A stretch of DNA of 64,000 bases. It comes from Myxococcales bacterium. Lineage in GTDB: Bacteria > Myxococcota_A > Polyangia > Palsa-1104 > JAEUJZ01. Under the pieces are notes generated by a model. That model worked only from the letters and a program-made list of their open reading frames with translations. It searched no databases and was not told the DNA's origin. The number at the start of each line of letters is the position of its first letter. Position 1 is the first letter of the stretch. This document shows, one piece after another, positions 3,636-64,000 of this stretch. The position numbers and the translations under genes were made by a program. The stretch spans positions 136 through 64,135 of the forward strand of contig JAEUJZ010000049.1 of the NCBI GenBank assembly GCA_016794505.1, in the 5' to 3' direction.

Positions 3636-5843
3636 GTGCGTCGCCTTGCTTATCTTCGACAGGTATCGGCCATCGCTGCGTTCGTCGGTGGTCTTGGCAG
3701 CGTCGTCTCGACGGCGCAGGCTCAGACTGCGACGCCGGCCAACGGCTTCCAGGTCAATCGCTACGAGCCCACAAGTGCCGGTGAGTGGTCACTCATGGTC
3801 GACCACCCTTGGTACAGCTCGATGCGCTACTTCGCCGCCGGCATTACTCTGAACTATGCACATGCACCGCTGGTCGTCGGCACGCGCGACGCCAACGGGG
3901 TGTTCACGCGAAACGGGGCGGCGATTGCGCATCAGCTCTTGGGGCACGTCGATCTCGCTGGGTCCTTTTTGGATCGCGTGCAGATCTCGGCGACGCTGCC
4001 GATCACGCTGCTGGAACGCGATGATCCGATGGGTATCGCGGCGATGCGTGGTGTATCGCTGGTGTCCTCTGTGGCAGTGGGAGATCCGCGCTTCGGGCTC
4101 AAGGTGCGGCTGTTTGGCCAGCCGTACCGCGGCGCTATCTCGATGAGCTTGGGGGCCGATGTCTGGGTGCCGGTGAATGCGCTCGCCGGCAATCCGTTTC
4201 CGGCGCAGGTCGGCGAAAGTAGCGTGCGTATCCTGCCTAAGCTGATGCTGGGCGGGCTGTCGCACGGTGTGATGTGGTCGCTGAACGCGGGCTTCCTGTA
4301 CCGGCCGTTTGGCACGGTGGCGGGTCAGGCGGCAGCACCGGGCAACACCATGGACTCTGAGCTGCAGATCGGAGCCATGATTGGCTACGCCAGCTATGAG
4401 AAGCGCTTCGCGATCGGACCGGAAGCGCTGCTTAGCACCATGGTGGGGCTGAACCAGCCGGGCACGGCCTTTAAGCAGGACTACACCAGCCTCGAAGTCC
4501 TGCTCGGCATCCACTACAACATCGCCAAGATTCTGCAGCTCAGCATCGGCGGTGGCGTGGGCCTATTGCGTGAACCTGGCACGCCGGACGCTCGCGGGCT
4601 CTTGCGCCTGTCCTATGCGCCGATCCGCGAAGAGAAGCCCAAGGATCGCGACGGCGACAGCATCCCAGATAAGCGCGATGCTTGTCCCGATGAGCCGGGG
4701 GTCGTGACGACGGATCCGATGACCAATGGCTGCCCGCCGCCGCCCAAGGATAGCGATGGCGATGGCATCGTTGATCCGCAGGATCAGTGCCCGACCGAGC
4801 CGCAGGGCAAGCATCCGCACCCAAGTCGCCGAGGCTGCCCGAACACGGACAAAGACGGCGATGGTGTCTTCGACAACGAAGACAAGTGCATCGACGAACC
4901 CGCAGGCAAGGACGCCGATGCCGACCTGCCCGGCTGCCCGCTGCGTGACAAGGATGGCGACGGCTTCTTCGACAAGCAGGATCAGTGTGTCGACACGCCC
5001 GCTGGCGCCAACCCCGATCCAAGCAAGCCCGGTTGCCCAGACAAGGACAGCGACAACGACGGAGTCTATGACGCCAAGGATCAGTGCAAGGACGTGCCGT
5101 CGGGCTTCAATCCTGACCCTGAAAAGCCCGGCTGCCCCTTGCCCGACCGCGACAACGACAAGGTGCCGGACAAGGTCGACGCTTGCCCGGACAAGCCTGG
5201 TGCGCCGAACACCGACCCGAAGAAGAACGGCTGCCCTGGCTTGGTCGAGATGAAGGACGGCCAGATCGTGATCCTCAAGCAGGTGTTCTTCGCGACCAAC
5301 AAAGACGTCGTGCTGAAGAACAGCTTCCCGGTGCTGGATGCGGTGGTTGCGACGCTGAAGATCATGACCCAGGTCAAGAAGGTCGCCGTCGAAGGACACA
5401 CCGACAACAAGGGCCAGGCCGACAAGAACCGCGATCTGTCAAACCGCCGCGCCAAGAGCGTCGTGAAGTACTTGGTCGATCACGGCATCGACGCCGGCCG
5501 CCTTGAGGCCATGGGCTATGGCCCGGATCGCCCGATCGCGGACAACAAGACGGAAAAAGGCCGCGCCAAGAACCGTCGCACGGATTTCCGTATCGTCGAT
5601 CCGCCTTCAGCAAATCCCGCGCAGGCGCCTGCCCCCAGCGCAAGCCCGCCGGCCAACACGCAGTCTGAGGCTCCTGCCAAGCAGCCGTCTGAGGTCAAAA
5701 AGACGGACAAGGCGGACAAGGCCGGCAAGGGCAAGCCCGCTCAGAAGGCGCCGTCGAGCCAACCCGCCAAACAGAAGAATGCTGCAGCGCCCAAGGCGGC
5801 CGCTGCGGCCAAGGCGGGCAAGGCGCCCAAGAAGGCCAAGTAG
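3636..5843 (+). CDS. OmpA-family outer-membrane protein with thrombospondin type-3 (Ca-binding) repeats and Lys/Ala-rich tail
   Basis: GTG start after aaaggggg; signal peptide; repeated D.D.DG..D..D motifs; OmpA_C motif GHTDNKG...NRRAKSV...NRRTDFRIV. Confidence 0.8.
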   Translation: MRRLAYLRQVSAIAAFVGGLGSVVSTAQAQTATPANGFQVNRYEPTSAGEWSLMVDHPWYSSMRYFAAGITLNYAHAPLVVGTRDANGVFTRNGAAIAHQLLGHVDLAGSFLDRVQISATLPITLLERDDPMGIAAMRGVSLVSSVAVGDPRFGLKVRLFGQPYRGAISMSLGADVWVPVNALAGNPFPAQVGESSVRILPKLMLGGLSHGVMWSLNAGFLYRPFGTVAGQAAAPGNTMDSELQIGAMIGYASYEKRFAIGPEALLSTMVGLNQPGTAFKQDYTSLEVLLGIHYNIAKILQLSIGGGVGLLREPGTPDARGLLRLSYAPIREEKPKDRDGDSIPDKRDACPDEPGVVTTDPMTNGCPPPPKDSDGDGIVDPQDQCPTEPQGKHPHPSRRGCPNTDKDGDGVFDNEDKCIDEPAGKDADADLPGCPLRDKDGDGFFDKQDQCVDTPAGANPDPSKPGCPDKDSDNDGVYDAKDQCKDVPSGFNPDPEKPGCPLPDRDNDKVPDKVDACPDKPGAPNTDPKKNGCPGLVEMKDGQIVILKQVFFATNKDVVLKNSFPVLDAVVATLKIMTQVKKVAVEGHTDNKGQADKNRDLSNRRAKSVVKYLVDHGIDAGRLEAMGYGPDRPIADNKTEKGRAKNRRTDFRIVDPPSANPAQAPAPSASPPANTQSEAPAKQPSEVKKTDKADKAGKGKPAQKAPSSQPAKQKNAAAPKAAAAAKAGKAPKKAK

Positions 5844-5901
5844 TCGGTACTTCCTGTATTCTTCCGTTTTCATTCCTTTTTCCCCGAAATGACAACTCGA
5901 T

Positions 5902-5940
5902 GAGCCTGCTTCCATCAGGGGAAGCAGGCTCTGCTTTGCC
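5902..5940 (+). terminator. rho-independent terminator hairpin downstream of the OmpA-TSP3 gene
   Basis: perfect 12-bp stem gagcctgcttcc/ggaagcaggctc with a 6-nt loop, followed by a T-rich tgctttg. Confidence 0.6.
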
Positions 5941-44698: not shown

Positions 44699-44891
44699 GG
44701 GGCGACTCCTTTTTTCGTCTGTGGGCTTCGGCTCTCGCAGTGGCGAGCGCCACATCCACAAGCATGATCGGCGCCTGTAAACGCCGCCTGTCGCGCACGT
44801 AAATTTTTGTAAAGACACACCGCGGTAGCGGTTTGAGGAAGGTCAAAGCCAAGCCGAGCAATCGTCGGCAGCGTCGCTGAAAAACGTCTGC

Positions 44892-45404
44892 CTAGCCATC
44901 CTGCGGGGGACGAGACTTGCTTTTGATGCGCGAAACCAAGCGCTGGTTGGTGAGGATCGACCACTGCAGACGCACCGCGAGATCCACGGCTTCCACGAGC
45001 TTTTGAATGCTGTCGCCCTTGGTGATGTATGCGAAGGGGCGGAAGTCATTGATGATGCGATAGGGATCCTTGCTGTCCTGATATGCGGAATAAAAGATGA
45101 CCGGCAGGTTGGGGTGGCTTGCGCGGATCTTTTCACAGACGGAAAAGCCATCCATTCCCGCCATGCGCACATCCAAGATGACGGCGCAGATTTCGTCGCT
45201 TAGTACAGCGAGCGCATCCGGCCCGTTTTGGCACAAGTGCAAGTTGTACCGCTTGCCAAACAGCCCCTCGATGCCGCGCAGGATGTCGCGATCGTCGTCG
45301 ACGGCAATGATCGTGGGTAGCTCTGCGCTGCTCTTGGCGGCGCCTTGCTTGCTGGGCTTGTTGCCAGAGGCTCCGAGGAGCTCGTCGAGTTCGGTGAAGG
45401 CCAT
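44892..45404 (-). CDS. single-domain response regulator (CheY-like receiver)
   Basis: IIAVDDD...LDVRMAGMDG...FYSAY. Confidence 0.75.
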   Translation of the reverse strand: MAFTELDELLGASGNKPSKQGAAKSSAELPTIIAVDDDRDILRGIEGLFGKRYNLHLCQNGPDALAVLSDEICAVILDVRMAGMDGFSVCEKIRASHPNLPVIFYSAYQDSKDPYRIINDFRPFAYITKGDSIQKLVEAVDLAVRLQWSILTNQRLVSRIKSKSRPPQDG

Positions 45405-51390: not shown

Positions 51391-51510
51391 TCCGCTGCCC
51401 TCGCGCCGCCTTCGTGCGGGCTTTCCGCTTTTTTCCGGCCGTCCAGCCTCCAGCGAAATCGGTAGTGCTCAAGTTTGGTTGTCGGACCAAGCTAGACCGC
51501 TCTTGCATCC

Positions 51511-51864
51511 ATGACCCCCGCGTGTCACCTTCGCCGCATGCCTAGACGGAAGAAGGAAGAGGACTTCAACACGCAGATCCATGCGCTGTACGAGCGCATA
51601 GCCGGCGGCGAGTCATCGCACGACGACGAACCCCCGGCGGAACCCGCGCCCACTCCAGAGAAGACGGAGAAGCCCAAGAAGGCCGACAAGGTCTTTGACC
51701 CTACCGTGAGCCCGGCTCAATGGCTAGGACAGCGCGGCGGCAAGAAGGGTGGCAAAGCGCGCACGGATGCCATGACGGCAGAGCAGCGCAAGGAACTTGC
51801 CCAGAAGGCCGCCGCCGCTCGCTGGGCCACCGCCAAGACCGGCGATCGCAAGGGCAACGGCTAG
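51511..51864 (+). CDS. hypothetical Lys/Glu-rich protein
   Basis: ORF only. Confidence 0.3.
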   Translation: MTPACHLRRMPRRKKEEDFNTQIHALYERIAGGESSHDDEPPAEPAPTPEKTEKPKKADKVFDPTVSPAQWLGQRGGKKGGKARTDAMTAEQRKELAQKAAAARWATAKTGDRKGNG

Positions 51865-52106
51865 CCCTTCAATTTCTCCCCCCACCCTTTCGGCGCTTTC
51901 CCGTCGCCGTAAGCCAGCCAGCATCGTTCCACCTTCAGCGCAGTAGCCAACCTCTCCACCGTGTCAGTGCGCGGCGTGCGGCTGTCTAGTTCCACGTCAG
52001 TGATGGAGCTGGGCGCGATGCCGGCTCGCTGCGCCAACTCGCGCACGGTCCAGTCCGCTTTTTCGCGTGCCCACTTCAGACGTTCTCCGATGGTGCTGCT
52101 GCTCAC
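51861..52106 (-). CDS. XRE/Cro-C1-type HTH transcriptional repressor
   Basis: LKWAREKADWTVRELAQRAGIAPSSITDVE; divergent from a rightward operon, with operators in between. Confidence 0.75.
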   Translation of the reverse strand: MSSSTIGERLKWAREKADWTVRELAQRAGIAPSSITDVELDSRTPRTDTVERLATALKVERCWLAYGDGKAPKGWGEKLKG

Positions 52107-52129
52107 GGCGGTTTCTTAGTACTGCCGCC

Positions 52130-52175
52130 GTTCCCTTTGGGGAACAGAAATTTGCTCTTGTTCCTTTCAGGGAAC
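52130..52175. promoter_or_regulatory. two GTTCC-N6-GGAAC palindromic operator-like sites in the divergent promoter region
   Basis: gttccctttggggaac (52130-52145) and gttcctttcagggaac (52160-52175); centres 30 bp apart; between the XRE gene and the rightward operon. Confidence 0.55.
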
Positions 52176-52209
52176 ATTCTGGCGTCCTCATCCATGAGGG
52201 AGGTCACCA

Positions 52210-52568
52210 TGAACCGCGTCGCCAGCAAGCCCCATCCCCGCAGCAAGACCCCACGCATCGTCGCCACGTTAGACTTGGCAAGCGAAGACCAGCGACGACT
52301 TCACGATCTGCTACACCGCTTCCACTCTGGCCGCTGGCCGCTGTTTCGGTGCCTGGGAATGCGACAGATCAACGGCGTGCTCTGTGAAGCCGTGGAGTGG
52401 CTACGGGTGGCCAAGCCCAGTTTTGGCGTGGTGACGTGGCGATCGGACGGGCTCGGGCTGTCGTGGCGCGATGCAGGGAGCGCCCAGGAGGCCAAGGTCA
52501 ATCTCATGCGCAGCGCGGCGAAGGCAGCCTCAGCGACGGTCGGAATAAAAAATGGAATAAAAGTATAG
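52210..52568 (+). CDS. hypothetical protein (first gene of rightward operon)
   Basis: SD gagggagg, 6 nt, then ATG at 52210; no recognisable motifs. Confidence 0.4.
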
Positions 52569-52636
52569 CCAGTAGGTAAACCTCGTGGTACTGACTCCTC
52601 AGTTTTCCTGGTTCACAGGTTACGCGAGGAGTATCG

Positions 52637-53257
52637 ATGCTTTATACCAAGGACCAAGTCGCCGAAATTGTCGCCCCCCATGTCCATAATCTCAGGGAGT
52701 GCGTCAATGGCGGCTGGTGTCAGTACCGCCGTGACTATTCAGCAGAACTCAGAAAAGTTCACTCAGCGCGGGCCAGGGCATCCGTCGTCCATGATCACAT
52801 TGTCCAGACTGCCGTGCGGAATCTGGAGGGCGTGCCTGGTATCAGAGTCCCTCTCTATCATTCTGGGCGTCCACTGCTGATTGAGATCGACAAAAAACTG
52901 ACGGTGCGATTTAAGAAACTCGACAACGAACGCCGTCCGCGAAACATCATGACCAGGCAGCAGCGCGGGCTCCTTGCCCAAGCCACCCTGCCACACATAG
53001 AAGGCACCATGCATCTTGTGGTCGGCTATGAGCTGGACCAGTTGCAACAGAATATCGCGCATATTTCGTTGCTCTGCCCTCATCCCACTAGGCTCTCTCC
53101 GCTATGGGATTTGCCACTCGATGACCGACTGAATGGCTTTGATAGCATGCCGCTGTTTACACACGCTACCCAAGCCCAGGATAACCCGGCGAATCTTATT
53201 ACCATTCGTCCTGATGCTGCTCGGAAGGAGGGGCGCGAACGCAATGGAAACAAATAG
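52637..53257 (+). CDS. hypothetical protein (206 aa), lower-GC DNA
   Basis: ORF overlaps the downstream gene start by 14 bp; no recognisable motifs. Confidence 0.45.
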   Translation: MLYTKDQVAEIVAPHVHNLRECVNGGWCQYRRDYSAELRKVHSARARASVVHDHIVQTAVRNLEGVPGIRVPLYHSGRPLLIEIDKKLTVRFKKLDNERRPRNIMTRQQRGLLAQATLPHIEGTMHLVVGYELDQLQQNIAHISLLCPHPTRLSPLWDLPLDDRLNGFDSMPLFTHATQAQDNPANLITIRPDAARKEGRERNGNK

Positions 53258-54314
53258 CGTCAACTACAAGATGGTCACACTTGCGCGTCAATCACGCGGA
53301 TTGACACAGAGCGAAATGGCAGAGCGTCTCGGTGTTACTCAAAGCAAGTTATCCAAGATTGAAGGGGGTCTTCTGAGTGTTTCCGGTGACATGCTGACTG
53401 GATTCAGCAAACTTCTGGACTATCCGGTCAGCTTCTTTATGCGACAAGATGAAATCTATGGCATTGGCTCAAGCCTGTTGTTTCATCGGAAACGGGAGAA
53501 TGTACCAGCCAAAACTCTCGATTGCATGCATGCGATGATCAACATTCGACGAATTGAGATATCGCGAATGTTGCTCTCGCTGAATCCTCCGCCATGCAAG
53601 GTTAAAAGGCTTCTAATTGATGAGTTCGACGGTAACGTCGAACGCATCGCCGCGATTGTGCGCGACGCATGGATGCTACCCAGGGGCCCTGTGGATAATT
53701 TAACGCGGCGCATTGAGTCTGCCGGTGGGATAATAATCAAATGCAATTTGGGAACCAGGCAGATTGACGCAATAGGACATTGGCCGCCGGCCATGCCGCC
53801 CATGATATTTGTTAATCAGGATATTCCAGCAGATCGTTATCGCTTCACTGTCGCTCATGAGCTTGGGCATCTTGTGATGCACGATTCACCAAACCCAGAC
53901 ATGGAGGCTCAGGCAGATCGGTTTGCGGCCGAGTTCCTGATGCCGACTGAGCAAATACTACCTGATTTGTATAATATCACTCTGCCGAAGTTGGCGGAGT
54001 TGAAGGCGTACTGGAAAGTGGCCATGAGTTCGCTATTAAGAAAGGCGCGCGATTGTAATCGCATTTCCCAAAACCAGTACAAATACCTTACGATCCAGAT
54101 GTCCAAAATGGGTTATCGGACAAGCGAGCCTGTTATTTTGCCATCCGAGGAACCCACCGTGCTGGATGGTCTTACCCAATTACATTTAACATCATTGGGC
54201 TACTCCATTGATGAATTGACGCGGATAATGGATCTTAATAAGGAGGAATGCACATCTATTTATGTCCGACCGACTCAGCCGCGCCAAGGAACAGGTCATT
54301 TGCGGCTGGTTTGA
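53244..54314 (+). CDS. XRE-HTH fused to an ImmA/IrrE-family (COG2856, DUF955) zinc metallopeptidase
   Basis: N-terminal HTH LARQSRGLTQSEMAERLGVTQSKLSKIE; HEXXH motif TVAHELGHLVMH; SD ggaaggagggg before the ATG. Confidence 0.8.
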   Translation: METNSVNYKMVTLARQSRGLTQSEMAERLGVTQSKLSKIEGGLLSVSGDMLTGFSKLLDYPVSFFMRQDEIYGIGSSLLFHRKRENVPAKTLDCMHAMINIRRIEISRMLLSLNPPPCKVKRLLIDEFDGNVERIAAIVRDAWMLPRGPVDNLTRRIESAGGIIIKCNLGTRQIDAIGHWPPAMPPMIFVNQDIPADRYRFTVAHELGHLVMHDSPNPDMEAQADRFAAEFLMPTEQILPDLYNITLPKLAELKAYWKVAMSSLLRKARDCNRISQNQYKYLTIQMSKMGYRTSEPVILPSEEPTVLDGLTQLHLTSLGYSIDELTRIMDLNKEECTSIYVRPTQPRQGTGHLRLV

Positions 54315-54323
54315 CGAGGCATT

Positions 54324-55281
54324 GGCCCGACCAGTGAACTCTAACATTAGAGGTTGACATGCTAGAGCGGTCTGGTATGTTTCTCGGCATGAACAAGCTC
54401 GATTCCGCCAAGCGCTGCCAAGTTTTGAAGGCTCTCGTCGAGGGCTGCTCAGTGAACTCGACGGCGCGGCTGACGGATGTGTCGGTGCCGACGATTCTGA
54501 AGCTGCTTGTCGATGCTGGCGAGGCTTGCGCCGAGACGCACGATTACATGGTGCGTGATGTGAAGTCCCGTCGCGTGCAGGCTGACGAGATTTGGTCGTT
54601 CGTCGGGAAGAAGGCCAAGAACACCGACGAGACCGATCGCGCTTGCGGTATGGGCGATGCGTGGGTCTGGACGGGGATGGATGCGGACAGCAAGTTGATC
54701 GTCTCGTACCTCGTCGGCGGTCGCGATGCCGAGTGCGCCAAAGAGTTCATCATCGACCTGGCCTCGCGCCTCAAGAGCCGCGTGCAACTCACGACGGACG
54801 GCCTCAAGGTCTACGTGGATGCAGTCGAGTACGCTTTCGGCGCCGACGTGGACTACGCGCAGCTTGTGAAGTCGTACACCTCGGTTATCGAAGGCCAGAA
54901 GCGCTACAGCCCGGCGCAGTGCTGCGGAGCAGTCAAAAGCACCGTGACCGGCAGCCCTGACCATGCGCACGTCAACACGTCGTACAGCGAGCGCTTGAAC
55001 CTGACGATCCGCATGCAGGACCGTCGCTTCACCCGCCTAACCAACGCGTTCTCGAAGAAGCTCGCGAACCACGTCGCCTCGGTTCACCTGCACAACTTCT
55101 TCTACAACTTCTGCCGCATCCACAAGACGCTGCGCACCACTCCCGCCATGGCCGCTGGCATCACCGATCGCGTGTGGGGCGTAGAAGACATCATCGCGAT
55201 CATGGAGAAGCGGGAAGCCCCGGTCGCGAAGCCAAGCGGCCTAGTTCCTGTCCGTCGGAAGTCGGCCTAATTGGTCGGACA
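54324..55281 (+). mobile_element. compact IS element (single DDE transposase ORF 54359-55270, IS1/IS1595-like) with short imperfect terminal inverted repeats
   Basis: 303-aa transposase-like ORF (DEIWSFVGKK...TDG...YSERLNLTIRMQDRRFTRLTNAFSKK); 7-bp inverted repeat ccgacca/tggtcgg at 54327-54333 and 55272-55278. Confidence 0.55.
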
Positions 55282-55306
55282 AGGAAAGTTGAGCACTACC
55301 GCGAAA

Positions 55307-56782
55307 TCAGGTGCCACAGAACGTTCGATACGCGCCGAAGCTCGACGGTGGAGGCTCGGCATACTCGGCGTGCATCGGCTGGTCCGCGTAGGGGGCGGAA
55401 AGCACCTGAGCCAAGCGCTCAAATGCACGGAGATCGCCGTTTCGCACCGCTTGTTCAAGCGCATGCTCGACGCGGTGGTTGCGCGGAATAAAGGCCGGAT
55501 TGACAGCACGCATGGCCTGCGCTCGCTCGGCCGGTGAGCCTGCTTCGTGCGCACAGCGCGCCTGCCAGCGCTGCAGCCACTTGCTAAAGCGCGCGGGGTC
55601 ATGGAACTGGCAGCGTAGATCCTCTGCATCCGCCCCGCCTGCGACGGCTGCGAGGCGACGAAAGGTGCAGGTGAAGTCCGCTGCGCTGCGGTGCATGTGG
55701 TCGAGCAGATCCTGCACCAGCGCATCATCGCCGGGCTGCTCGCTTGTCAGCCCCAGCTTCGTGCGCATCCCGGAAAGCCAGCGCGCTGCAAACCGCGTTT
55801 CAAACTGGCCTAGGTGTTCGGTGGCGAGGGCGATGGCGCGGCTGCGATCGGGATCGAAAAGCGGCAGCAGCGTCTCGGCCAAGCGCGCAAGATTCCACAG
55901 CGCAATCGGCGCCTGGTTGGCATAGGCATAGCGCCCGCCTTCATCGATCGAGCTGAACACCGTGCCCGGATCGTAGGCATCCATGAAGGCACACGGGCCA
56001 AAGTCGATCGTCTCGCCCGAGATCGCCATGTTGTCGGTGTTCATGACGCCATGGATGAAGCCAACCAGCAGCCAGCGCGCGACCAGATCGATCTGCCGAT
56101 CCATAACCGCATCGAGCAGCGCCAGATACGGCTGCTCGGCAGAAACCAGCGCGGGATCGTGGCGCAGAAGCACATAGTCGGCGAGCCGCTTGACGTCGGC
56201 GGGCTCGGCGTGACGCGCGAAGAACTGAAACGTTCCGACGCGAATGTGGCTCTGCGCAACGCGGGTGAACACCGCTCCCGGTAAGACAGACTCGCGATAG
56301 ACCGGCTCGCCCGTCGCGACGGCGGCTAGAGCGCGCGTCGTGGGAATGCCCAGGGCGTGCATCGCTTCGCTGATCAGGTACTCGCGCAGGACGGGACCCA
56401 GCGCGGCTCGCCCGTCGCCGCGGCGTGAAAACGGCGTCTGCCCCGCGCCTTTTAGCTGGATGTCACGACGCTGCCCGGCACGATCGCGGACCTCACCGAG
56501 TAGGATGGCGCGCCCGTCGCCAAGCTGCGGCACAAAGTGGCCGAACTGATGCCCGGCATAGGCGAGCGCAATCGGCTCGGCATCGCTGGGCAGCGCGCAG
56601 CCAGAAAAGATCGCGGCTCCGTGCGTGGCTTGCAGCGCGCGTGCATCCAGACCTAGCTCGTCGCACAGCGCATGGTTGAGCTTGAGCAGCGTGGGCGCTC
56701 GCACGCGGCTGGGCGCGACCTTGGCATAGAAGCCGGGCAGCGCCCGCGCATAGCTGTGTTCAAAACCAAACGAGATGCTCAT
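55307..56782 (-). CDS. selO: protein adenylyltransferase SelO (YdiU/UPF0061)
   Basis: GHQFG...QLGDGRA..LGE...QLKGAGQTPFSRRGDGRAALGPVLREYLISEAMHALGIPTTRAL hallmark. Confidence 0.9.
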   Translation of the reverse strand: MSISFGFEHSYARALPGFYAKVAPSRVRAPTLLKLNHALCDELGLDARALQATHGAAIFSGCALPSDAEPIALAYAGHQFGHFVPQLGDGRAILLGEVRDRAGQRRDIQLKGAGQTPFSRRGDGRAALGPVLREYLISEAMHALGIPTTRALAAVATGEPVYRESVLPGAVFTRVAQSHIRVGTFQFFARHAEPADVKRLADYVLLRHDPALVSAEQPYLALLDAVMDRQIDLVARWLLVGFIHGVMNTDNMAISGETIDFGPCAFMDAYDPGTVFSSIDEGGRYAYANQAPIALWNLARLAETLLPLFDPDRSRAIALATEHLGQFETRFAARWLSGMRTKLGLTSEQPGDDALVQDLLDHMHRSAADFTCTFRRLAAVAGGADAEDLRCQFHDPARFSKWLQRWQARCAHEAGSPAERAQAMRAVNPAFIPRNHRVEHALEQAVRNGDLRAFERLAQVLSAPYADQPMHAEYAEPPPSSFGAYRTFCGT

Positions 56783-58222: not shown

Positions 58223-60472
58223 TTGCAGTCCTTCGGTCCGAACATAGACGCCCTGCTTTCGGCAGGCGATCTGCGCGGCGCTGCAGTCGCGCTGGCCGCG
58301 CAAGGCGAGCTAACGCGTGCGCGCGAGCTGTTCGAGCGCATCGGTGACTGGTCACGCGCCCGCGAGATCGCAAACACCCAAGGGGACCGGCTGAGCGAGC
58401 TGCGGATCGCGCTGCGCTCCGACGATCCGCAACGCGCAAGCGAGCTAGTCGCGGCGCTGCACACGGCCGAGCGTACCCTGAAAGAGCAAGCGGCTGAGCT
58501 GTGCGAGCGAGAGCGAGCCTGGTCGCAGGCTGCGACGCTGCGCTTGGCGCTCCACGACATCGATGCGGCCCTGCGTCTGTTGCAGCGCGCAGGCGATCAC
58601 CTGGCCATCGCTCGAATCAACGAGCAACAAGGGAAGCTGCAGGCCGCCGTGCAGTCCTATCGCGCCTTCTTGGCGGAGCGAGCCGCTGTCGAGCCAGTGG
58701 CAGGGCAGAGCAGCGACGAGTACCTGGCCGCTCTGCGCGGCTGTGCGCGGCTGCTTCTGCGTTCGGGGCAGGCTGAATCGGCGATTCCTCTTCTGCAAGC
58801 CGCCAGGCGATTGCTTCTTTCGGGCGATCGGGATGCGTGGCGAGACGCGCGGCGAGGCGCGCTGAGCGGTGTCGAGTCCGATCTGATGGAGTGCTTTTTC
58901 TCCATCGATGAGCCAGGGCTTGCCGAGCGCGTATTCGCCCAGCACATGCGCTGGCAGACCGACGCACAGCCTGCCGGATCAGCGATCGAGTACCTGCGTC
59001 GCCGGGTGCAGGTGTCCGGGGCAGCGCTGGCCGCGTCGAGAGAACGCCCCCTGTTGCTCGGCCGCTATCGTCTGGGGCGCTTGCTTGGCGCGGGCAGCGT
59101 CGGGCGCGTCTATGAAGCAGAGGATCTGTGCAGCGGTCGTCGTGTGGCGCTCAAGCTCTTGGTCTTGGCGGGATCGAGCTCGGCGCGAGCCAGCGCGCTG
59201 TACGATCGCTTCTGTCGCGAGGCCAAGACGCTGTCGGCGCTGCGTCACCCCAAGCTGGTGCAGATCGAGGCCTTCTTCCCCGCGGCCGGCGTGCTGGCCC
59301 TCGAATACATGGCGGGTGGCGCGGTCCATGACGCGGCACTGCCGCTTTCGCTGGGGCGCGTGCGTCGCCTGCTGCTCGACGTCCTCGACGCGCTTTCCGG
59401 GATGCACGCAGCCTCGGTTCTGCATCGTGACATCAAGCCGCACAACCTGTTCTTCGATGCGCTAGGTGGCGTCAAGCTGGGGGACTTTGGCATCGCTTCG
59501 CTGAAAGACCTGGGCGTCACACAGACCGAAGGGCTCGTCGGCACGCTGGCCTACATGGCTCCCGAGCAGATTCGTGGCGGCGTGCTGACGACGGCCACCG
59601 ATGTCTATGGCTTGGGGGTCACGGCGTATCAGCTAGCGACGGGACGTCTGCCGTTTGCTGGGCCCGATTTTCTGACGCAGCATCTGCACAGCCCTCCGCC
59701 CGATGCGCGAAGTGTCCTGCCCGATCTACCTCAGCCGTGGGCGCTTCTGCTTTTGCGCATGCTGCACAAAGATCCGCACGAGCGCTGCCAGCGGCTCGAC
59801 GCGCTGCGCAGCGAAGTGGCCAAGCTGCCCGTGCCCGAGGGGTTGACGCGGTCGGGTCCTGAGCCGATTCCACCGGCCACGCCAGAGCGACCGGCACCCG
59901 ATGTCACCACCGCGCTGGCTGCGCCGACTGACACCGAGCGCGCCGAGCCCGGCGTGCGCATCGCAGGCACGGCCCACAGCGAAGTGTTTGTCGGCACCGA
60001 CGCGCTGGCTGGCCGAACCGTGCTGCGCGAGCGCTTTGCGTCCGCCCGTTTGCACAGTGATCTGGGGGCAGCTCAGCTGACTTGGCTGCGGCAGCTGGCG
60101 GCGCTGTCCGGGCCTGGGCTGCAGCGCATCTATTCCATTCAGCCGACGGTCGCAGCGCCGAATGGCGAGCGATCTTCAGCTTTGCCAAGCGAGCCAGCGT
60201 TCACCGAGGTCGAGTTCCAGTACATCGATCCGGCAGCGTCTGTGTCCCTGGCCGAGCTATTGCCCCACGAGCGGGCGCAGCTTGGCCGCGTCCTTGCGCG
60301 TCTGCGCCATGCTGGAGTGACGCACGGCAGCGTGCAACGCGCGCTGGCCCGAACCTCTGGCCATATCACGCTGCTTTTGCACGCCTGCGGGCCCCTGTCC
60401 TGGCCTGGCCCCGTCGAGGATCCCGACCTGCTAGAGCCATCTACGATTCCTGAAAAGCCACATAAAGAGTGA
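58223..60472 (+). CDS. Ser/Thr protein kinase with N-terminal TPR-like helical region
   Basis: LGAGSVGRVYEA, HRDIKPHN, DFGIAS, YMAPE. Confidence 0.8.
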   Translation: MQSFGPNIDALLSAGDLRGAAVALAAQGELTRARELFERIGDWSRAREIANTQGDRLSELRIALRSDDPQRASELVAALHTAERTLKEQAAELCERERAWSQAATLRLALHDIDAALRLLQRAGDHLAIARINEQQGKLQAAVQSYRAFLAERAAVEPVAGQSSDEYLAALRGCARLLLRSGQAESAIPLLQAARRLLLSGDRDAWRDARRGALSGVESDLMECFFSIDEPGLAERVFAQHMRWQTDAQPAGSAIEYLRRRVQVSGAALAASRERPLLLGRYRLGRLLGAGSVGRVYEAEDLCSGRRVALKLLVLAGSSSARASALYDRFCREAKTLSALRHPKLVQIEAFFPAAGVLALEYMAGGAVHDAALPLSLGRVRRLLLDVLDALSGMHAASVLHRDIKPHNLFFDALGGVKLGDFGIASLKDLGVTQTEGLVGTLAYMAPEQIRGGVLTTATDVYGLGVTAYQLATGRLPFAGPDFLTQHLHSPPPDARSVLPDLPQPWALLLLRMLHKDPHERCQRLDALRSEVAKLPVPEGLTRSGPEPIPPATPERPAPDVTTALAAPTDTERAEPGVRIAGTAHSEVFVGTDALAGRTVLRERFASARLHSDLGAAQLTWLRQLAALSGPGLQRIYSIQPTVAAPNGERSSALPSEPAFTEVEFQYIDPAASVSLAELLPHERAQLGRVLARLRHAGVTHGSVQRALARTSGHITLLLHACGPLSWPGPVEDPDLLEPSTIPEKPHKE

Positions 60473-60550
60473 TCTCTGTCATGTGATTTTATTTTTATAA
60501 ATCAATATAAATCTAAATTATAGATATAATAAATTATCGAGACTTCGTGC

Positions 60551-62389
60551 TTAGCGCACGGGGCGAATGCGCAGCTTGGGCGTACGCGGGGGCGGTGCCT
60601 TGACCAGCTTGCCGGCCTTGTTTTCGAGGATGTCGAAGGTCTTGCAGACTGAAAGCAGCTCGCGACGGGCTTCTGCGGTGTCGCGGCGCGGATCGGGCAG
60701 CTTGGCTAGGGCTTGGTTGGCGATGCTCAGACGGTCCTTGCGGCAGGCCAGCTGACCGAGCGCGCTCCACAGCTGGGGGTGCGGGTGCTGCGCCAGGGCG
60801 CGGCGCAGCGCTTTGATCGCGTCGTTGGTATCGCCGGCTCGCAGCAGCGCGTCGCTTTGCAGGATGGCTTTGCTGACCTTCGGCGGCAGGGGCGGCGCAG
60901 CAGGCGGCGGCACAGGCTGCGCAGCGACGGGCGGTACAGGTGCAGGGGGAACGGGCGCCGGGCTCGCTGGCACCTGCAGGCGTGGCGGATCGGCTTTGAC
61001 TGGCTCGCGCTTGACGCTCGATCGCCCCAGAAAAAACGGTCCCAGAACACCGCCGACAATCAGGCCCAGCAGCGCTACGGCCGAGACGATGCGGCGCTTC
61101 TTGCCGCGCCGGATCATGAGCGACCACAGCTCTTCGCCGATCTCGCGCTGACGGGTAAACGAGCGCCGCCCTGCCTCGCGCAGCCGTCCCAGCACGCGCT
61201 CTCCCAAGCTGGGTGAGCTGTTGGACGACTGCGAGCTGGGCGATTCCGTGGCGGGCGCGGCGCGGGCCTGGCGCTCGGCGTCCGCGACCTGCGTGTCGGC
61301 GCGCACCGATACCGGCGGCTCCTCGGGGCGCGGCACCACGGCTGCTTCCAGCGTGGCCGCCGTCGCTGCCGCCATGTCCGATGGCGAAGGGGCCGGGGCG
61401 TTCCGCGGCGCGGCCTTGCGCAGATCCAGCTCGAACGACCCTTGATCGGCGATCGATCCCGACAGATCGCGCAGCACGCGCACGACCGCGCTCATGGCGG
61501 GCCGGCGCTCTGGGGTCTTGTCGAGCATGGAATCCACCAGCGTCTGCAGCGACGGACTGCTGCTGGGCACCAGGCTTCCGAGTGGCGGCGCTGGCTCGTA
61601 CATATGCAGCACGATGTACTCGCCGGGATCCTTGGCCAGAAACGGCAGCCGCCCGGCCAGAAGCTCGAACAAGATCGTCCCCAGCGCATAGACATCCGAG
61701 CGATCGGTGGTGTTGCGACTGCTGCGGCACTGCTCGGGCGACATGTACATCGGCGTGCCCATCAGCATGTTGCTGCCGGTGCGCACGCTGTCCATGGCCG
61801 CCTGCAGCTTGGCCAGCCCGAAGTCCAGCACCTTGACGCGCTCGCCTCCCGGCGCCTCGGGCTCAGGAACGATCAAGATGTTTTCCGGCTTGAGGTCGCG
61901 ATGGATGACGCCCTTTTGGTGGGCGGCGGCGAGGGCGGCGGCGATCTGGCGTCCCAGGCGGATGGTATCGGCGCTGCTGAGCTGCTTCTGGCGCTTGAGG
62001 CGCTTGTACAGCGTCTCGCCTTCCAGAAATTCCATGGCCAAAAAGATGGTCCCGTCGGGCTCGCGACCATAGTCGAAGATGCGGACGATGCCGGCGTGCT
62101 CGATGCGGTTGGCGGCGCGGGCTTCGTTGAGAAAGCGCGCCGCGATCTCGTGGTTGGCGGCGTACTCGGGTCGCAGGATCTTCAGGGCCGCGCGACTGCC
62201 GATGTCTTCGCGCGTGGCTTCGTACACGACGGCCATGCCGCCACGGCCGACCTCGCGAACGATCCGATAGTTGCGTATGCGCTGACCCAGCATGAGTGGC
62301 AGACTGCGACCCGTCGACGTTCCCAGGCGCGGCTCCGCGATGGCCGGTGCTCTGCGCGTATCCGTCGAGTAACGGGTTGGGGAGTCCAT
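60551..62389 (-). CDS. Ser/Thr protein kinase with TM segment and C-terminal TPR region; start uncertain (62389 or 62293)
   Basis: VGRGGMAVVYEA, HRDLKPEN, DFGLAK, SPEQ. Confidence 0.8.
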   Translation of the reverse strand: MDSPTRYSTDTRRAPAIAEPRLGTSTGRSLPLMLGQRIRNYRIVREVGRGGMAVVYEATREDIGSRAALKILRPEYAANHEIAARFLNEARAANRIEHAGIVRIFDYGREPDGTIFLAMEFLEGETLYKRLKRQKQLSSADTIRLGRQIAAALAAAHQKGVIHRDLKPENILIVPEPEAPGGERVKVLDFGLAKLQAAMDSVRTGSNMLMGTPMYMSPEQCRSSRNTTDRSDVYALGTILFELLAGRLPFLAKDPGEYIVLHMYEPAPPLGSLVPSSSPSLQTLVDSMLDKTPERRPAMSAVVRVLRDLSGSIADQGSFELDLRKAAPRNAPAPSPSDMAAATAATLEAAVVPRPEEPPVSVRADTQVADAERQARAAPATESPSSQSSNSSPSLGERVLGRLREAGRRSFTRQREIGEELWSLMIRRGKKRRIVSAVALLGLIVGGVLGPFFLGRSSVKREPVKADPPRLQVPASPAPVPPAPVPPVAAQPVPPPAAPPLPPKVSKAILQSDALLRAGDTNDAIKALRRALAQHPHPQLWSALGQLACRKDRLSIANQALAKLPDPRRDTAEARRELLSVCKTFDILENKAGKLVKAPPPRTPKLRIRPVR

Positions 62390-62927
62390 CTTCAAATGTA
62401 CATGGGCTGCGCGCTGAGCATTCAACAGTTCCGCACGGAACCATGGCTTCGAGGCTGCGGTCGAAGCTGCGCGTGTCCCGTCCCGCTCGCTCACCCAGGC
62501 ACACACCGCCGCCGCGGCACGAAGCCGGCACAGTAAATATTGATTAATAAACTGATGGCTGTCTTTTGTGTTGGGGGCCTGAGGAAGCTCAATTATCAAT
62601 TATAAAGAGAGGTGCGTAAAACCTTGCCAGCGCCGGACGTGGCGAGCGTTGTTTTATGATGAAAAGGATGCCGAGAGGCGGAGGCTCGTCACTGCTGAAG
62701 GTTAAGGGGGGCCCCTCGCTAGGGGGACGACGGCGTGGGGCGCTGCGCGAGCGGAGTCGCAAGCATCCTCGCCGAAATGAATGGGGCCGCGCGGCGCGGG
62801 AAAAAAGGAATCATTATAGGGACTTAGGACTGCGCACAGAGCGTCTGCGCAGCAAGTGTGTTGTCGAATCTAAGCGGCCATTGCTACTTACATGATTGGA
62901 ACGTAAAATAGTCTGCTCAGTACACAT

Positions 62928-64000
62928 ATGACCGGCCAGGTGATTGGAAAGTACCGCTTAGGTCGCAAGCTCGGCGAGGGCGGCATGGGGATGGTCTTTG
63001 AGGCGGTGCGTGAAGACATCGGAGGCCGTGCCGCAGTCAAGCTGTTGCACGCCGAGCTCGCGCGGAACGTCGAGATCTCGATGCGCTTCTTCAATGAAGC
63101 GCGGGCCGCCAACCTGCTTGAGCACCCGACGATCGTGCGGGTCTTCGACTACGGCAATCTGCCCGATGGCCGCGCCTATCTGGCGATGGAGTATCTAGAG
63201 GGCGAGTCGCTGGCCAGCCGCATCAAGCGCAGCGGTCGCCTGGCGATTCCCGATGTGCTGCGCCTGAGCCGTCAGATCGCCGCCGGACTTTCGGCCGCGC
63301 ACGCCAAGAAGGTGATCCACCGCGACCTGAAGCCAGCCAATGTCATGGTCGTCCCCGAGAGCGAGATGGCGGGCGGCGAGCGGGTGAAGATCCTCGACTT
63401 CGGTATCGCCAAGCTCAGCGAGTCAGAAGCGGGAAAGAACCTGCACACCAAGACCGGCGCGCTCATGGGAACCCCGATCTATATGTCGCCCGAGCAGTGC
63501 CGCGGCGCCGGACGCGTTGACGAGAAGACCGATGTCTACTCGCTGGGCATCATGCTGTTCGAGATGCTGGCCGGTGGCCCGCCGTTCTCGGCAGAGGGGC
63601 AGGGCGAAGTGATCGCGCTGCACATGTTTCAGCCGCCGCCGCCGCTTCAGCACTACGTCCCCGAGGCGCCGCCCGAGCTGGCGTCGCTGGTGTCGACGAT
63701 GCTGGCCAAGGACGCGACGGTGCGTCCGACGATGCAGCAGGTCGCGGCGACGCTTCAGTCGCTGGCGGCGCAGGGCGGACAGACGTCGATTCCACCGACG
63801 AGCGCAACGGCGCCCGTCGGCAGCTCGCCGCTCGCCAGCACGCTGCCGCCGAGCAGCATTCGCGGCAGCTTGCACAGCAACACGCGCAGCGGAGGCGGCA
63901 CGCGCATCGCCCTGCTCATCGCGAGTTGCGTCCTCATCCTTGGCGCGGGCGCGGCGCTGTTCCTCGTGCGCGATCCGTCGCCTGAGCCCGATGCGACGCG
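62928..64000 (+). CDS. Ser/Thr protein kinase, 3'-partial (runs off window)
   Basis: MTGQVIGKYRLGRKLGEGGMGMVFEA, HRDLKPAN, DFGIAK, SPEQ; no stop before the window end. Confidence 0.8.
   Translation, partial: MTGQVIGKYRLGRKLGEGGMGMVFEAVREDIGGRAAVKLLHAELARNVEISMRFFNEARAANLLEHPTIVRVFDYGNLPDGRAYLAMEYLEGESLASRIKRSGRLAIPDVLRLSRQIAAGLSAAHAKKVIHRDLKPANVMVVPESEMAGGERVKILDFGIAKLSESEAGKNLHTKTGALMGTPIYMSPEQCRGAGRVDEKTDVYSLGIMLFEMLAGGPPFSAEGQGEVIALHMFQPPPPLQHYVPEAPPELASLVSTMLAKDATVRPTMQQVAATLQSLAAQGGQTSIPPTSATAPVGSSPLASTLPPSSIRGSLHSNTRSGGGTRIALLIASCVLILGAGAALFLVRDPSPEPDAT

Follow-up and report, generated by a model that had tools for sequence, protein, structure and literature searches.

A probable RosmerTA-type toxin-antitoxin cassette carried by an IS1-family transposon in a Myxococcales genome

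Organization of the element

The subject of this study is an insertion sequence (IS) of the IS1 family, together with its passenger genes, located at positions 51461-55300 of a 64-kb stretch of DNA (the window, meaning the whole stretch analyzed) from a Myxococcales metagenome-assembled genome. The region is a single cargo-carrying transposon of 3,840 bp, a "transporter IS" with the passenger genes inside. The left terminal inverted repeat (GGTAGTGCTCAAGTTTGGTTGTCGGACCAA, 30 nt, 51461-51490, forward strand) pairs with the right one (55271-55300, reverse strand); in a repeat search the pair was reported as 51460-51490 and 55271-55301, 31 nt with 87% complementarity. Both arms start with GGTAGTGCTCAA; the 8 bp immediately outside each inverted repeat (51453-51460 and 55301-55308) read GCGAAATC in both places, an exact direct repeat. 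From left to right the element contains orfA, a divergent pair formed by an XRE-family repressor gene and orfB with two palindromic operator candidates, a two-gene cassette encoding proteins of 206 and 356 amino acid residues, and the transposase gene. These are four separate units, of which the cassette is foreign in composition and the transposase gene has a promoter-like site of its own.

The element is located downstream of the terminator of an S46 peptidase gene (51416-51428 and a T-run) and 6 bp past the stop codon of selO, and the target of insertion was the 68-bp spacer separating these two convergent host genes. The selO open reading frame (ORF) ends at 55307, and the right copy of the duplication overlaps two bases of its stop codon. 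Three sister elements, L006, L008/L009 and L010 (loci are designated by L numbers), are bounded by the same ends, each with different flanking genes. Because each has its own flanks and its own 8-bp duplication (CGCGCGCC in L006, AACAAGTG in L008 and GACTGCGC in L010), they represent independent insertions of one element family. The original prediction, made from the sequence of the window, had placed an IS immediately downstream of a low-GC islet. An IS1-like transposase gene is indeed found there, but it is the element's own, and the inverted repeats enclose the whole region.

The transposase ORF (54359-55270, forward strand) codes for 303 residues, with a likely start at ATG 54389 (MNKLD...). 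It matches the IS1 profiles of NCBIfam (transpos_IS1, E=2.4e-17, 63.5 bits, below the 100-bit cutoff) and Pfam (DDE_Tnp_IS1, 25.0 bits, cutoff 24.1). Its plasmid relatives at 53-59% identity carry the label "IS1 family transposase" from the Prokaryotic Genome Annotation Pipeline. The hallmarks of the IS1 family are GGnnnTG ends and an 8-bp duplication. The window element has both, together with a DDE transposase matching IS1 profiles; with transporter IS, which are IS derivatives with passenger genes, it shares the location of these genes inside the inverted repeats. It differs from classical IS1, with its InsA/InsAB' organization and programmed -1 frameshift, in that the transposase is one uninterrupted ORF of 293-303 residues with an N-terminal helix-turn-helix (HTH), in which neither the InsA/InsB frameshift nor a zinc finger was found. 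It also differs in its profile scores, which fall short of the curated cutoffs or only just reach them, and in a clade-wide extra gene, orfA. The organization of the transposase is consistent solely with a single-ORF subgroup of the IS1 family. ISfinder lists such a subgroup (ISMhu11) with lengths of 0.9-4.6 kb.

The low-GC cassette

The sister element L006 is in a contig found through a homologue of the 119-residue orfB protein. When the window was compared with this contig by blastn, 51460-52467 and 54352-55300 aligned at 88% identity, with similarity absent across the segment between them; a further match of 30 nt pairs the right end of the window block with the inverted left end of L006. 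The segment without similarity is the cargo cassette (52468-54351, forward strand), whose left edge is between 52468 and about 52545. Its GC content is 51%, compared with 63% in the left arm and about 65% in the flanks, and the GC content at third codon positions is 0.59 and 0.52 for its two genes but 0.73-0.82 for the XRE gene, orfB, the transposase gene and the host genes, with 0.73-0.78 for the part holding the XRE gene and most of orfB. The original prediction of an islet of about 50% GC within flanks of about 70% is correct for the cassette; the XRE gene, the palindromes and most of orfB are host-like, and the flanks are less GC-rich than had been stated.

The first gene of the cassette (52637-53257, forward strand, JNJ46_10700) encodes the 206-residue protein, a putative RmrT-like toxin. 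It overlaps by 14 bp the co-oriented second gene (53244-54314, forward strand), whose 356-residue product, a putative antitoxin of RmrA type, consists of an N-terminal XRE HTH fused to an M78 (ImmA/IrrE) Zn-peptidase domain with the sequence HELGH at residue 205. The overlapping genes, the HTH-peptidase fusion with HELGH and the 119-residue ORF had been described in the original prediction and are present. In PADLOC, 14 RmrA profiles match the HTH-M78 protein, the lowest value being E=7.4e-59, with residues 7-340 aligned to positions 3-333 of a 363-position profile. Further matches are to phrog_2439 (E=6e-77), Peptidase_M78 (E=4.6e-18) and HTH_3. On the evidence of these profiles it belongs to RmrA.

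In the RosmerTA literature a Zn-peptidase antitoxin is combined with a toxin of unknown function, and a delta-rmrA mutant could not be transformed. Ernits et al. 2023 describe RmrA as a protease of ImmA type that frequently has an HTH at its N-terminus and is paired with many different toxins, the toxin gene being first in 58%; defense was validated for a phage-encoded pair (Gordonia phage Kita RmrTA). The cassette of the window has in common with RosmerTA (Millman et al. 2022; Ernits et al. 2023) the overlapping genes, the toxin-first order, the antitoxin with XRE-type HTH fused to an M78 Zn-peptidase with HExxH, and an adjacent, co-oriented, domainless putative toxin conserved with it as a pair. 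The location on mobile elements and in defense or toxin-antitoxin islands is also shared. The 206-residue protein differs in being outside the RmrT profiles of PADLOC v2.0.0. In addition, the phage Kita RmrT, the only one studied mechanistically, is membrane-depolarizing, whereas the window protein is predicted to be soluble and restriction-endonuclease-like. Taken together, these features make it quite likely that the cassette is a RosmerTA-type type II toxin-antitoxin or abortive-infection module on an IS1 transposon. The earlier suggestion that the HTH-ImmA/IrrE fusion beside an unannotated protein forms a module of toxin or defense type agrees well with this architecture (RmrA, E=7e-59).

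The corresponding section of L006 contains a different cargo: a 229-residue protein unrelated to the 206-residue one, which matches the PADLOC RmrT profile PDLC03929, and an HTH-M78 protein only 28% identical to the RmrA of the window. The presence of different RosmerTA pairs between arms that are 88% identical is direct evidence of cassette replacement.

By analogy with the RosmerTA literature, we infer that the 206-residue protein would be a toxin and the 356-residue HTH-M78 protein its antitoxin and probably an autorepressor. In the uninfected cell RmrA would hold the toxin inactive and repress the operon through its HTH. A signal derived from phage or stress, acting through the Zn-peptidase domain, would lift this control, so that the toxin would be freed and the cell arrested. 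As a side effect, the cassette could stabilize the transposon in its host.

Several observations weigh against parts of this interpretation. Neither the 206-residue protein nor any of 63 aligned members of its family matches a PADLOC RmrT profile. The motif D...(D/E)xK expected of a restriction-endonuclease-like protein is not evident in the family, in which D53 is the only near-invariant acidic residue and D96 varies. The gap of 68 bp between orfB and the cassette has no terminator in a simple scan, and the two may share a transcript. Finally, the empty target site, an uninterrupted S46-selO junction, was not found in metagenome contigs, and the case for insertion therefore rests on the target duplication and the sister copies. 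With regard to the first of these points, partners in sister elements do match PADLOC RmrT profiles, which served as a control. Since the RmrT families are heterogeneous, the lack of a match would indicate a new toxin family and leaves the type of system possible. It also means that automated tools would not call a complete RosmerTA at this locus.

The 206-residue putative toxin

A search with a word-indexed method matched the 206-residue protein to itself only, and the reading of its gene as an orphan was overturned by an exhaustive HMMER search. The latter found 912 cluster representatives (clustered at 50% identity) with E<=1e-3, including 226 with E<=1e-10, and nearly all are 190-220 residues long. 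The family is characterized by the motifs TRA-IVHDH, RFKKLD, N-PT-Q and GY-L; residues R47, A48, D53, R91, F92, K93, K94, T106, G130 and Y131 are near-invariant. The family profile gave no significant match in Pfam, PADLOC, PHROGs, NCBIfam or the sequences of the PDB, and the proteins that the profile search retrieved all lack both a Pfam annotation and an informative name.

Six loci of homologues with 24-35% identity were looked up. In all six a gene for an HTH-M78 protein of 352-366 residues overlaps or abuts (within 4 bp) the 3' end of the homologue, and in the three that were compared this protein is 44-51% identical to the RmrA of the window. The pairing of the family with RmrA-like genes is thus conserved as judged from these loci. 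The surroundings vary: SMODS and SLATT genes with IS21, a type I restriction-modification system, an IS1595 element, a site flanked by the toxin-antitoxin pairs Phd-PIN and TacAT, phage-like DNA that includes a terminase gene, and a polysaccharide locus. No small divergent XRE gene directly upstream and no gene at the position of orfB was seen in the six loci, where the orfB and XRE profiles were not run. The constant RmrA partner, combined with varied surroundings without the XRE/orfB arrangement, suggests that the 206-residue protein and RmrA form an autonomous two-gene module of toxin-antitoxin or defense-island type. One such pair (L132) and the sister transposons L006 and L010 are located among phage-like genes, such as those for a 5'-3' exonuclease, DUF6948, terminase and amidase; these flanks suggest that the cassettes also travel on phages or prophages.

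An AlphaFold2 model of the 206-residue protein, based on 57 sequences, has a predicted local distance difference test score (pLDDT) of 84 and a predicted template modeling score (pTM) of 0.75. It consists of three N-terminal helices, a β-sheet and a disordered tail. The best Foldseek matches of the model are EcoRV, BglI, ThaI, SfsA, NlaIV and NaeI, none with E<=1e-3. The predicted fold therefore resembles those of restriction endonucleases weakly. Together with the basic RFKK strand, it allows us to propose, with low confidence, that the protein acts on nucleic acid, and a nuclease mechanism is tentative. The relatives and the fold are the outcome of the remote-homology search and structure prediction that had been proposed as checks for this protein.

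The family is of wider interest as a large, unannotated set of toxin partners added to the RmrA systems. Current defense-finder profiles miss it, and such systems are consequently under-counted. The structural model is confident, and the nuclease hypothesis is testable.

The XRE/orfB module

The XRE-family repressor gene (51861-52106, reverse strand) codes for 81 residues that match HTH_3 with E=3.8e-13 and, in a profile search, resemble phage repressor families. It is divergent from orfB (52209-52568, forward strand, 119 residues), which is preceded by a GGAGG ribosome-binding site and belongs to a family of mobile-element proteins of about 100 residues. The two operator candidates are GTTCCCTTTGGGGAAC (52130-52145) and GTTCCTTTCAGGGAAC (52160-52175), 30 bp apart from start to start. 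Both the divergent gene and the twin palindromes were correctly recognized in the original prediction. The pattern GTTCC-N6-GGAAC has only these two matches in the window, compared with 0.03 expected by chance. The first palindrome is conserved in L006, and the L006 copy of the second has one change in the spacer, with the arms intact. The XRE protein is identical to its L006 counterpart at 80 of 81 residues. The whole section of XRE gene, operators and orfB is 88% nucleotide-identical in L006, the RosmerTA pair of which differs. An XRE dimer would bind to the two sites, which are three helical turns apart, and would control its own promoter and that of orfB independently of the cassette.

Homologues of orfB, about 100-115 residues in length, number at least 55. 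A divergent XRE gene precedes orfB in at least 14 loci among 31 metagenome loci together with L003 and L007, and most of the loci are without an IS1 end. In at least 12 loci the XRE/orfB pair is found without an RmrA-like gene in the sequence covered, often adjoining integrase or transposase genes. A tyrosine integrase gene is directly 3' of orfB in L123, L124, L125, L128 and L130, and orfB is near a SWIM-DDE transposase in L114-L116. Most of the homologous intergenic regions contain palindromes of different sequence, which fits operators co-evolving with their repressors; L007 has twin palindromes about 30 bp apart, and L113 has related GAACA/TGTTC sites.

Judging from these occurrences, the XRE/orfB pair is a self-contained regulatory module of mobile elements, separate from the peptidase system. 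Because this pair and the pair of the 206-residue protein and RmrA occur independently, orfB is best regarded as a backbone protein of mobile elements and not as a candidate effector of the peptidase. Of the two effector candidates named originally, the 206-residue protein is retained as the conserved partner of RmrA in six of six loci, and the 119-residue protein is not. The proposed three-gene operon under the XRE repressor is replaced by a composite of independent modules, since XRE/orfB recurs without the peptidase, and the cassette pair without the XRE/orfB arrangement. The three genes are accordingly not conserved together in the loci examined; an association with defense islands, also raised at that time, is seen for the cassette pair, near restriction-modification, SMODS/SLATT and toxin-antitoxin genes. 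A practical consequence for annotation is that a peptidase system should not be assumed to include an adjoining XRE repressor, even one with good operators.

If L003 and L007 are counted with the integrase and SWIM-DDE loci, the divergent pair adjoins recombinases of four kinds: tyrosine integrases and three sorts of transposase (IS1, IS1595 and SWIM-DDE). Where the neighbor is an integrase, orfB is placed as an excisionase gene usually is, and the pair could be a general mobility-control module.

The similarity of the XRE protein to phage repressors, the location of orfB homologues directly upstream of tyrosine integrases in the five loci named above, and the presence of L006 and L010 among phage-like genes could also mean that the region is the remnant of a prophage or integrative element. 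The XRE and 119-residue proteins would then form a switch of cI/Cro or repressor/excisionase type, the other genes would be decayed phage regulators, and the IS would be a later insertion. This is very improbable. The interval from the S46 peptidase gene to selO contains no phage genes for structural proteins, replication or integrase, and scans for tRNA and Rfam families gave nothing relevant, with no tRNA or attachment-like repeat in the window. Moreover, inverted repeats and an exact 8-bp duplication delimit the region, which recurs as a unit in unrelated flanks. Both this reading and one of chance ORFs were rejected, as conserved families are found for all the genes and the ends of the unit are exactly those of a transposon.

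The nearby repressor raises another question, whether the peptidase acts on it. In the ImmR/ImmA (ICEBs1), DdrO/IrrE (Deinococcus) and CapH/CapP (CBASS) systems an M78/COG2856 peptidase and an XRE HTH are likewise found, with a stand-alone XRE repressor and its operators nearby, and the cleavage of XRE repressors by such peptidases is well documented in the literature. By this model, the one put forward in the original prediction, a signal of damage or phage would activate the peptidase of the window, which would cleave the 81-residue XRE protein off the palindromes and derepress an operon of orfB, the 206-residue protein and the peptidase, and perhaps transposition. The XRE gene and the M78 peptidase do share one element in the window and in L006; in L003 an XRE gene immediately precedes a different HTH-M78 gene within the same operon and is divergent from an orfB homologue; and in L115/L116 an RmrA-like gene is within about 2.5 kb of orfB. 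However, peptidase and repressor are separate and co-conserved in the known switches, which regulate and neutralize no toxin. In the window the HTH is fused to the peptidase, as in RmrA antitoxins, and the nearby XRE gene is not co-conserved with it in the loci examined. The six loci of the cassette pair without a small divergent XRE gene directly upstream or a gene at the orfB position, and the 12 or more loci of XRE/orfB without an RmrA-like gene, argue in the same direction. So does the sister element L006, in which the same XRE protein and operators accompany a peptidase of 28% identity, and L008, which has no peptidase and an unrelated reverse-strand ORF of 86 residues instead of the XRE gene. 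The XRE protein itself has about 15 residues beyond the HTH, which leaves little room for the C-terminal dimerization or cleavage domain of ImmR, DdrO or CapH. A switch of this type is thus weakened as an explanation, since either module can do without the other in the loci examined, and we consider it unlikely. The arrangement of the units in the window and its relatives instead points to their modular independence, and the RosmerTA-type cassette would be under its own RmrA.

The 86-residue ORF (5657-5917, reverse strand) replaces the XRE gene in the same position and orientation in both L008 and L010. It appears ribbon-helix-helix-like by eye (KTISVRLSEAEYADLERV) and has no Pfam match. A second homologue of orfB (JNJ46_15245), 66% identical, is found in the same genome as the window element (L003-L005). 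It is divergent from an XRE gene heading an operon with a different HTH-M78 gene (368 residues) and a partner of 161 residues. The 161-residue partner resembles the partner cluster of L056, L057, L070 and L071 by eye only.

The IS1 clade and its cargo

Relatives of the transposase were sought with an alignment in one genome per GTDB species; at least 595 were found, of which 80 loci were retained. Among these, 39 elements were delimited by a script using the inverted repeats (GGTAGTG..TCAGTTTGAAAT) and the 8-bp duplication, so that the terminal repeats and duplication typical of IS1 are present in the window element and in 38 other copies. The delimited elements are 1.3-4.8 kb long, and every copy therefore carries more than the transposase gene; orfA is the minimum, and further passenger genes are present in most.

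The profile of orfA matches 37 of the 39 elements, in which the gene is located at the left end and codes for 75-125 residues. In the window orfA (51538-51864, forward strand) has 108 residues starting with MPRRKK, within a longer ORF of 117 residues from 51511. Its product is 84% identical to that of L006 and 67% identical to that of L008; the homologues begin with MPRKK. Homologues are found in L006, L008 and L018-L095; the C-terminus reads GQRGGKKGGKAR...EERKELAKKAAAARW and is rich in lysine and glycine in the window. No Pfam match was found for orfA, and a match to phrog_2384 is weak. Unlike InsA of IS1, it has no cysteines and no zinc finger. Its distribution indicates that orfA is an accessory gene common to the IS1 clade of the window element.

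A cargo of RosmerTA type is frequent in the clade. In 15 of the 39 elements an RmrA-like protein of more than 250 residues with HExxH is encoded beside a partner of 157-252 residues, in either orientation. The partners form several unrelated clusters, and several partners match PADLOC RmrT profiles. Other cargo (L020-L095) includes Fic proteins matching SoFic (PADLOC, E=3.9e-49), ClpP-like proteases of the SDH type, an antitoxin of HicB type, proteins with DUF6941, DUF4760 and DUF7689, and the PADLOC candidates PDC-S04, PDC-S24 and PDC-M64. The layout of the window element is also found on a Hoeflea plasmid in RefSeq, as a hypothetical protein of 216 residues followed by a 395-residue "XRE family regulator" and an IS1 transposase.

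The transposase gene is associated with a promoter-like site, TTGACA-16-TATGTT with TG upstream (54354-54381, forward strand), which L006 and L008 also have where their right arms begin. It is located exactly where the similarity to these two elements resumes, and 7 nt separate its end from the conserved ATG 54389. This short distance suggests that the transposase mRNA is leaderless or nearly so, and also that the annotated start of the 303-residue ORF at 54359 is 10 codons too early.

Since an RmrA-like gene in 15 of 39 elements is often directly upstream of this promoter, as on the Hoeflea plasmid, the cassette might serve the transposon itself: the HTH-M78 protein would be primarily a regulator of transposition or an addiction module that ties transposase expression or retention of the element to stress, and any anti-phage defense would be incidental. 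In Tn3-family transposons, toxin-antitoxin pairs form an integral part of the passenger load, according to work cited in PMC9330008. This explanation nevertheless appears improbable. The RmrA-like gene may have either orientation relative to the transposase gene, which retains its own conserved promoter, and in 24 of the 39 elements the RmrA-like gene is absent and other cargo of defense type is found instead (SoFic, the PDC candidates, HicB). The same pair of toxin and RmrA also occurs far from any transposase. A RosmerTA-type module carried as cargo remains the preferred interpretation of the cassette.

A broader proposal is that a widespread, undescribed clade of single-ORF IS1 elements is a dedicated shuttle for immune and toxin-antitoxin cassettes, and that the 206-residue protein founds a nuclease-like RmrT family. 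This is put forward tentatively, as a possibility less likely than not. The shuttle part is based on the 595 or more relatives, orfA in 37 of 39 elements, the slot for cassettes upstream of a conserved promoter, the RosmerTA cargo in about 40% and the exchange of cassettes between near-identical backbones. A literature search, limited in its coverage so that novelty is unproven, found no description of RosmerTA or other toxin-antitoxin genes as passengers of IS1 or ISMhu11 elements, and ISfinder may already catalogue such elements. RosmerTA itself and IS with passenger genes are already known, as are Tn7-like transposons carrying defense genes and Tn3-family transposons carrying toxin-antitoxin genes. 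What appears to be new is the large RmrT-like family absent from the PADLOC profiles and a single-ORF IS1 clade habitually carrying RosmerTA or defense cassettes.

Comparison with other vehicles and proteins is instructive. Tn7-like transposons (Benler et al. 2021) and those of the Tn3 family (cited in PMC9330008) are also vehicles for defense or toxin-antitoxin cassettes, with cargo exchanged between near-identical backbones. The window element differs from them in its IS1 transposase, its size of about 3-4 kb, its single cassette and the lack of a resolvase or target-selection machinery. The HTH and COG2856 architecture of its antitoxin is shared with the spr1629 repressor/antitoxin (NCBIfam NF052239) and with the predicted Xre-COG2856 toxin-antitoxin pairs of Makarova et al. 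2009. Its score against NF052239 is 97 bits, compared with a cutoff of 335, and it is not an equivalog. An IS1-type transposon of 3-4 kb can bring complete defense or toxin-antitoxin cassettes into chromosomes, plasmids and phage-like contexts and exchange them. Such a vehicle helps to explain lone defense modules between housekeeping genes, like the one in the window.

Two minor observations concern regulation and composition. A near-palindromic 10-mer, AGA(C/G)CG(C/G)TCT, occurs at 51494-51503, next to the inner end of the left inverted repeat and upstream of orfA, and again at 54364-54373 in the spacer of the transposase promoter; the pair extends over 15 nt with 93% complementarity. The L006 counterparts are AGAGCGCTCT, next to the inner end of its left inverted repeat, and AGAGCGGTCT, in the spacer of its transposase promoter. 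The 10-mer may be a shared operator co-regulating orfA and the transposase gene. Elsewhere in the window there are three further dips in GC content, at 44800-45400, 60200-60800 and 62600-63200, with 55-57% compared with about 65%.

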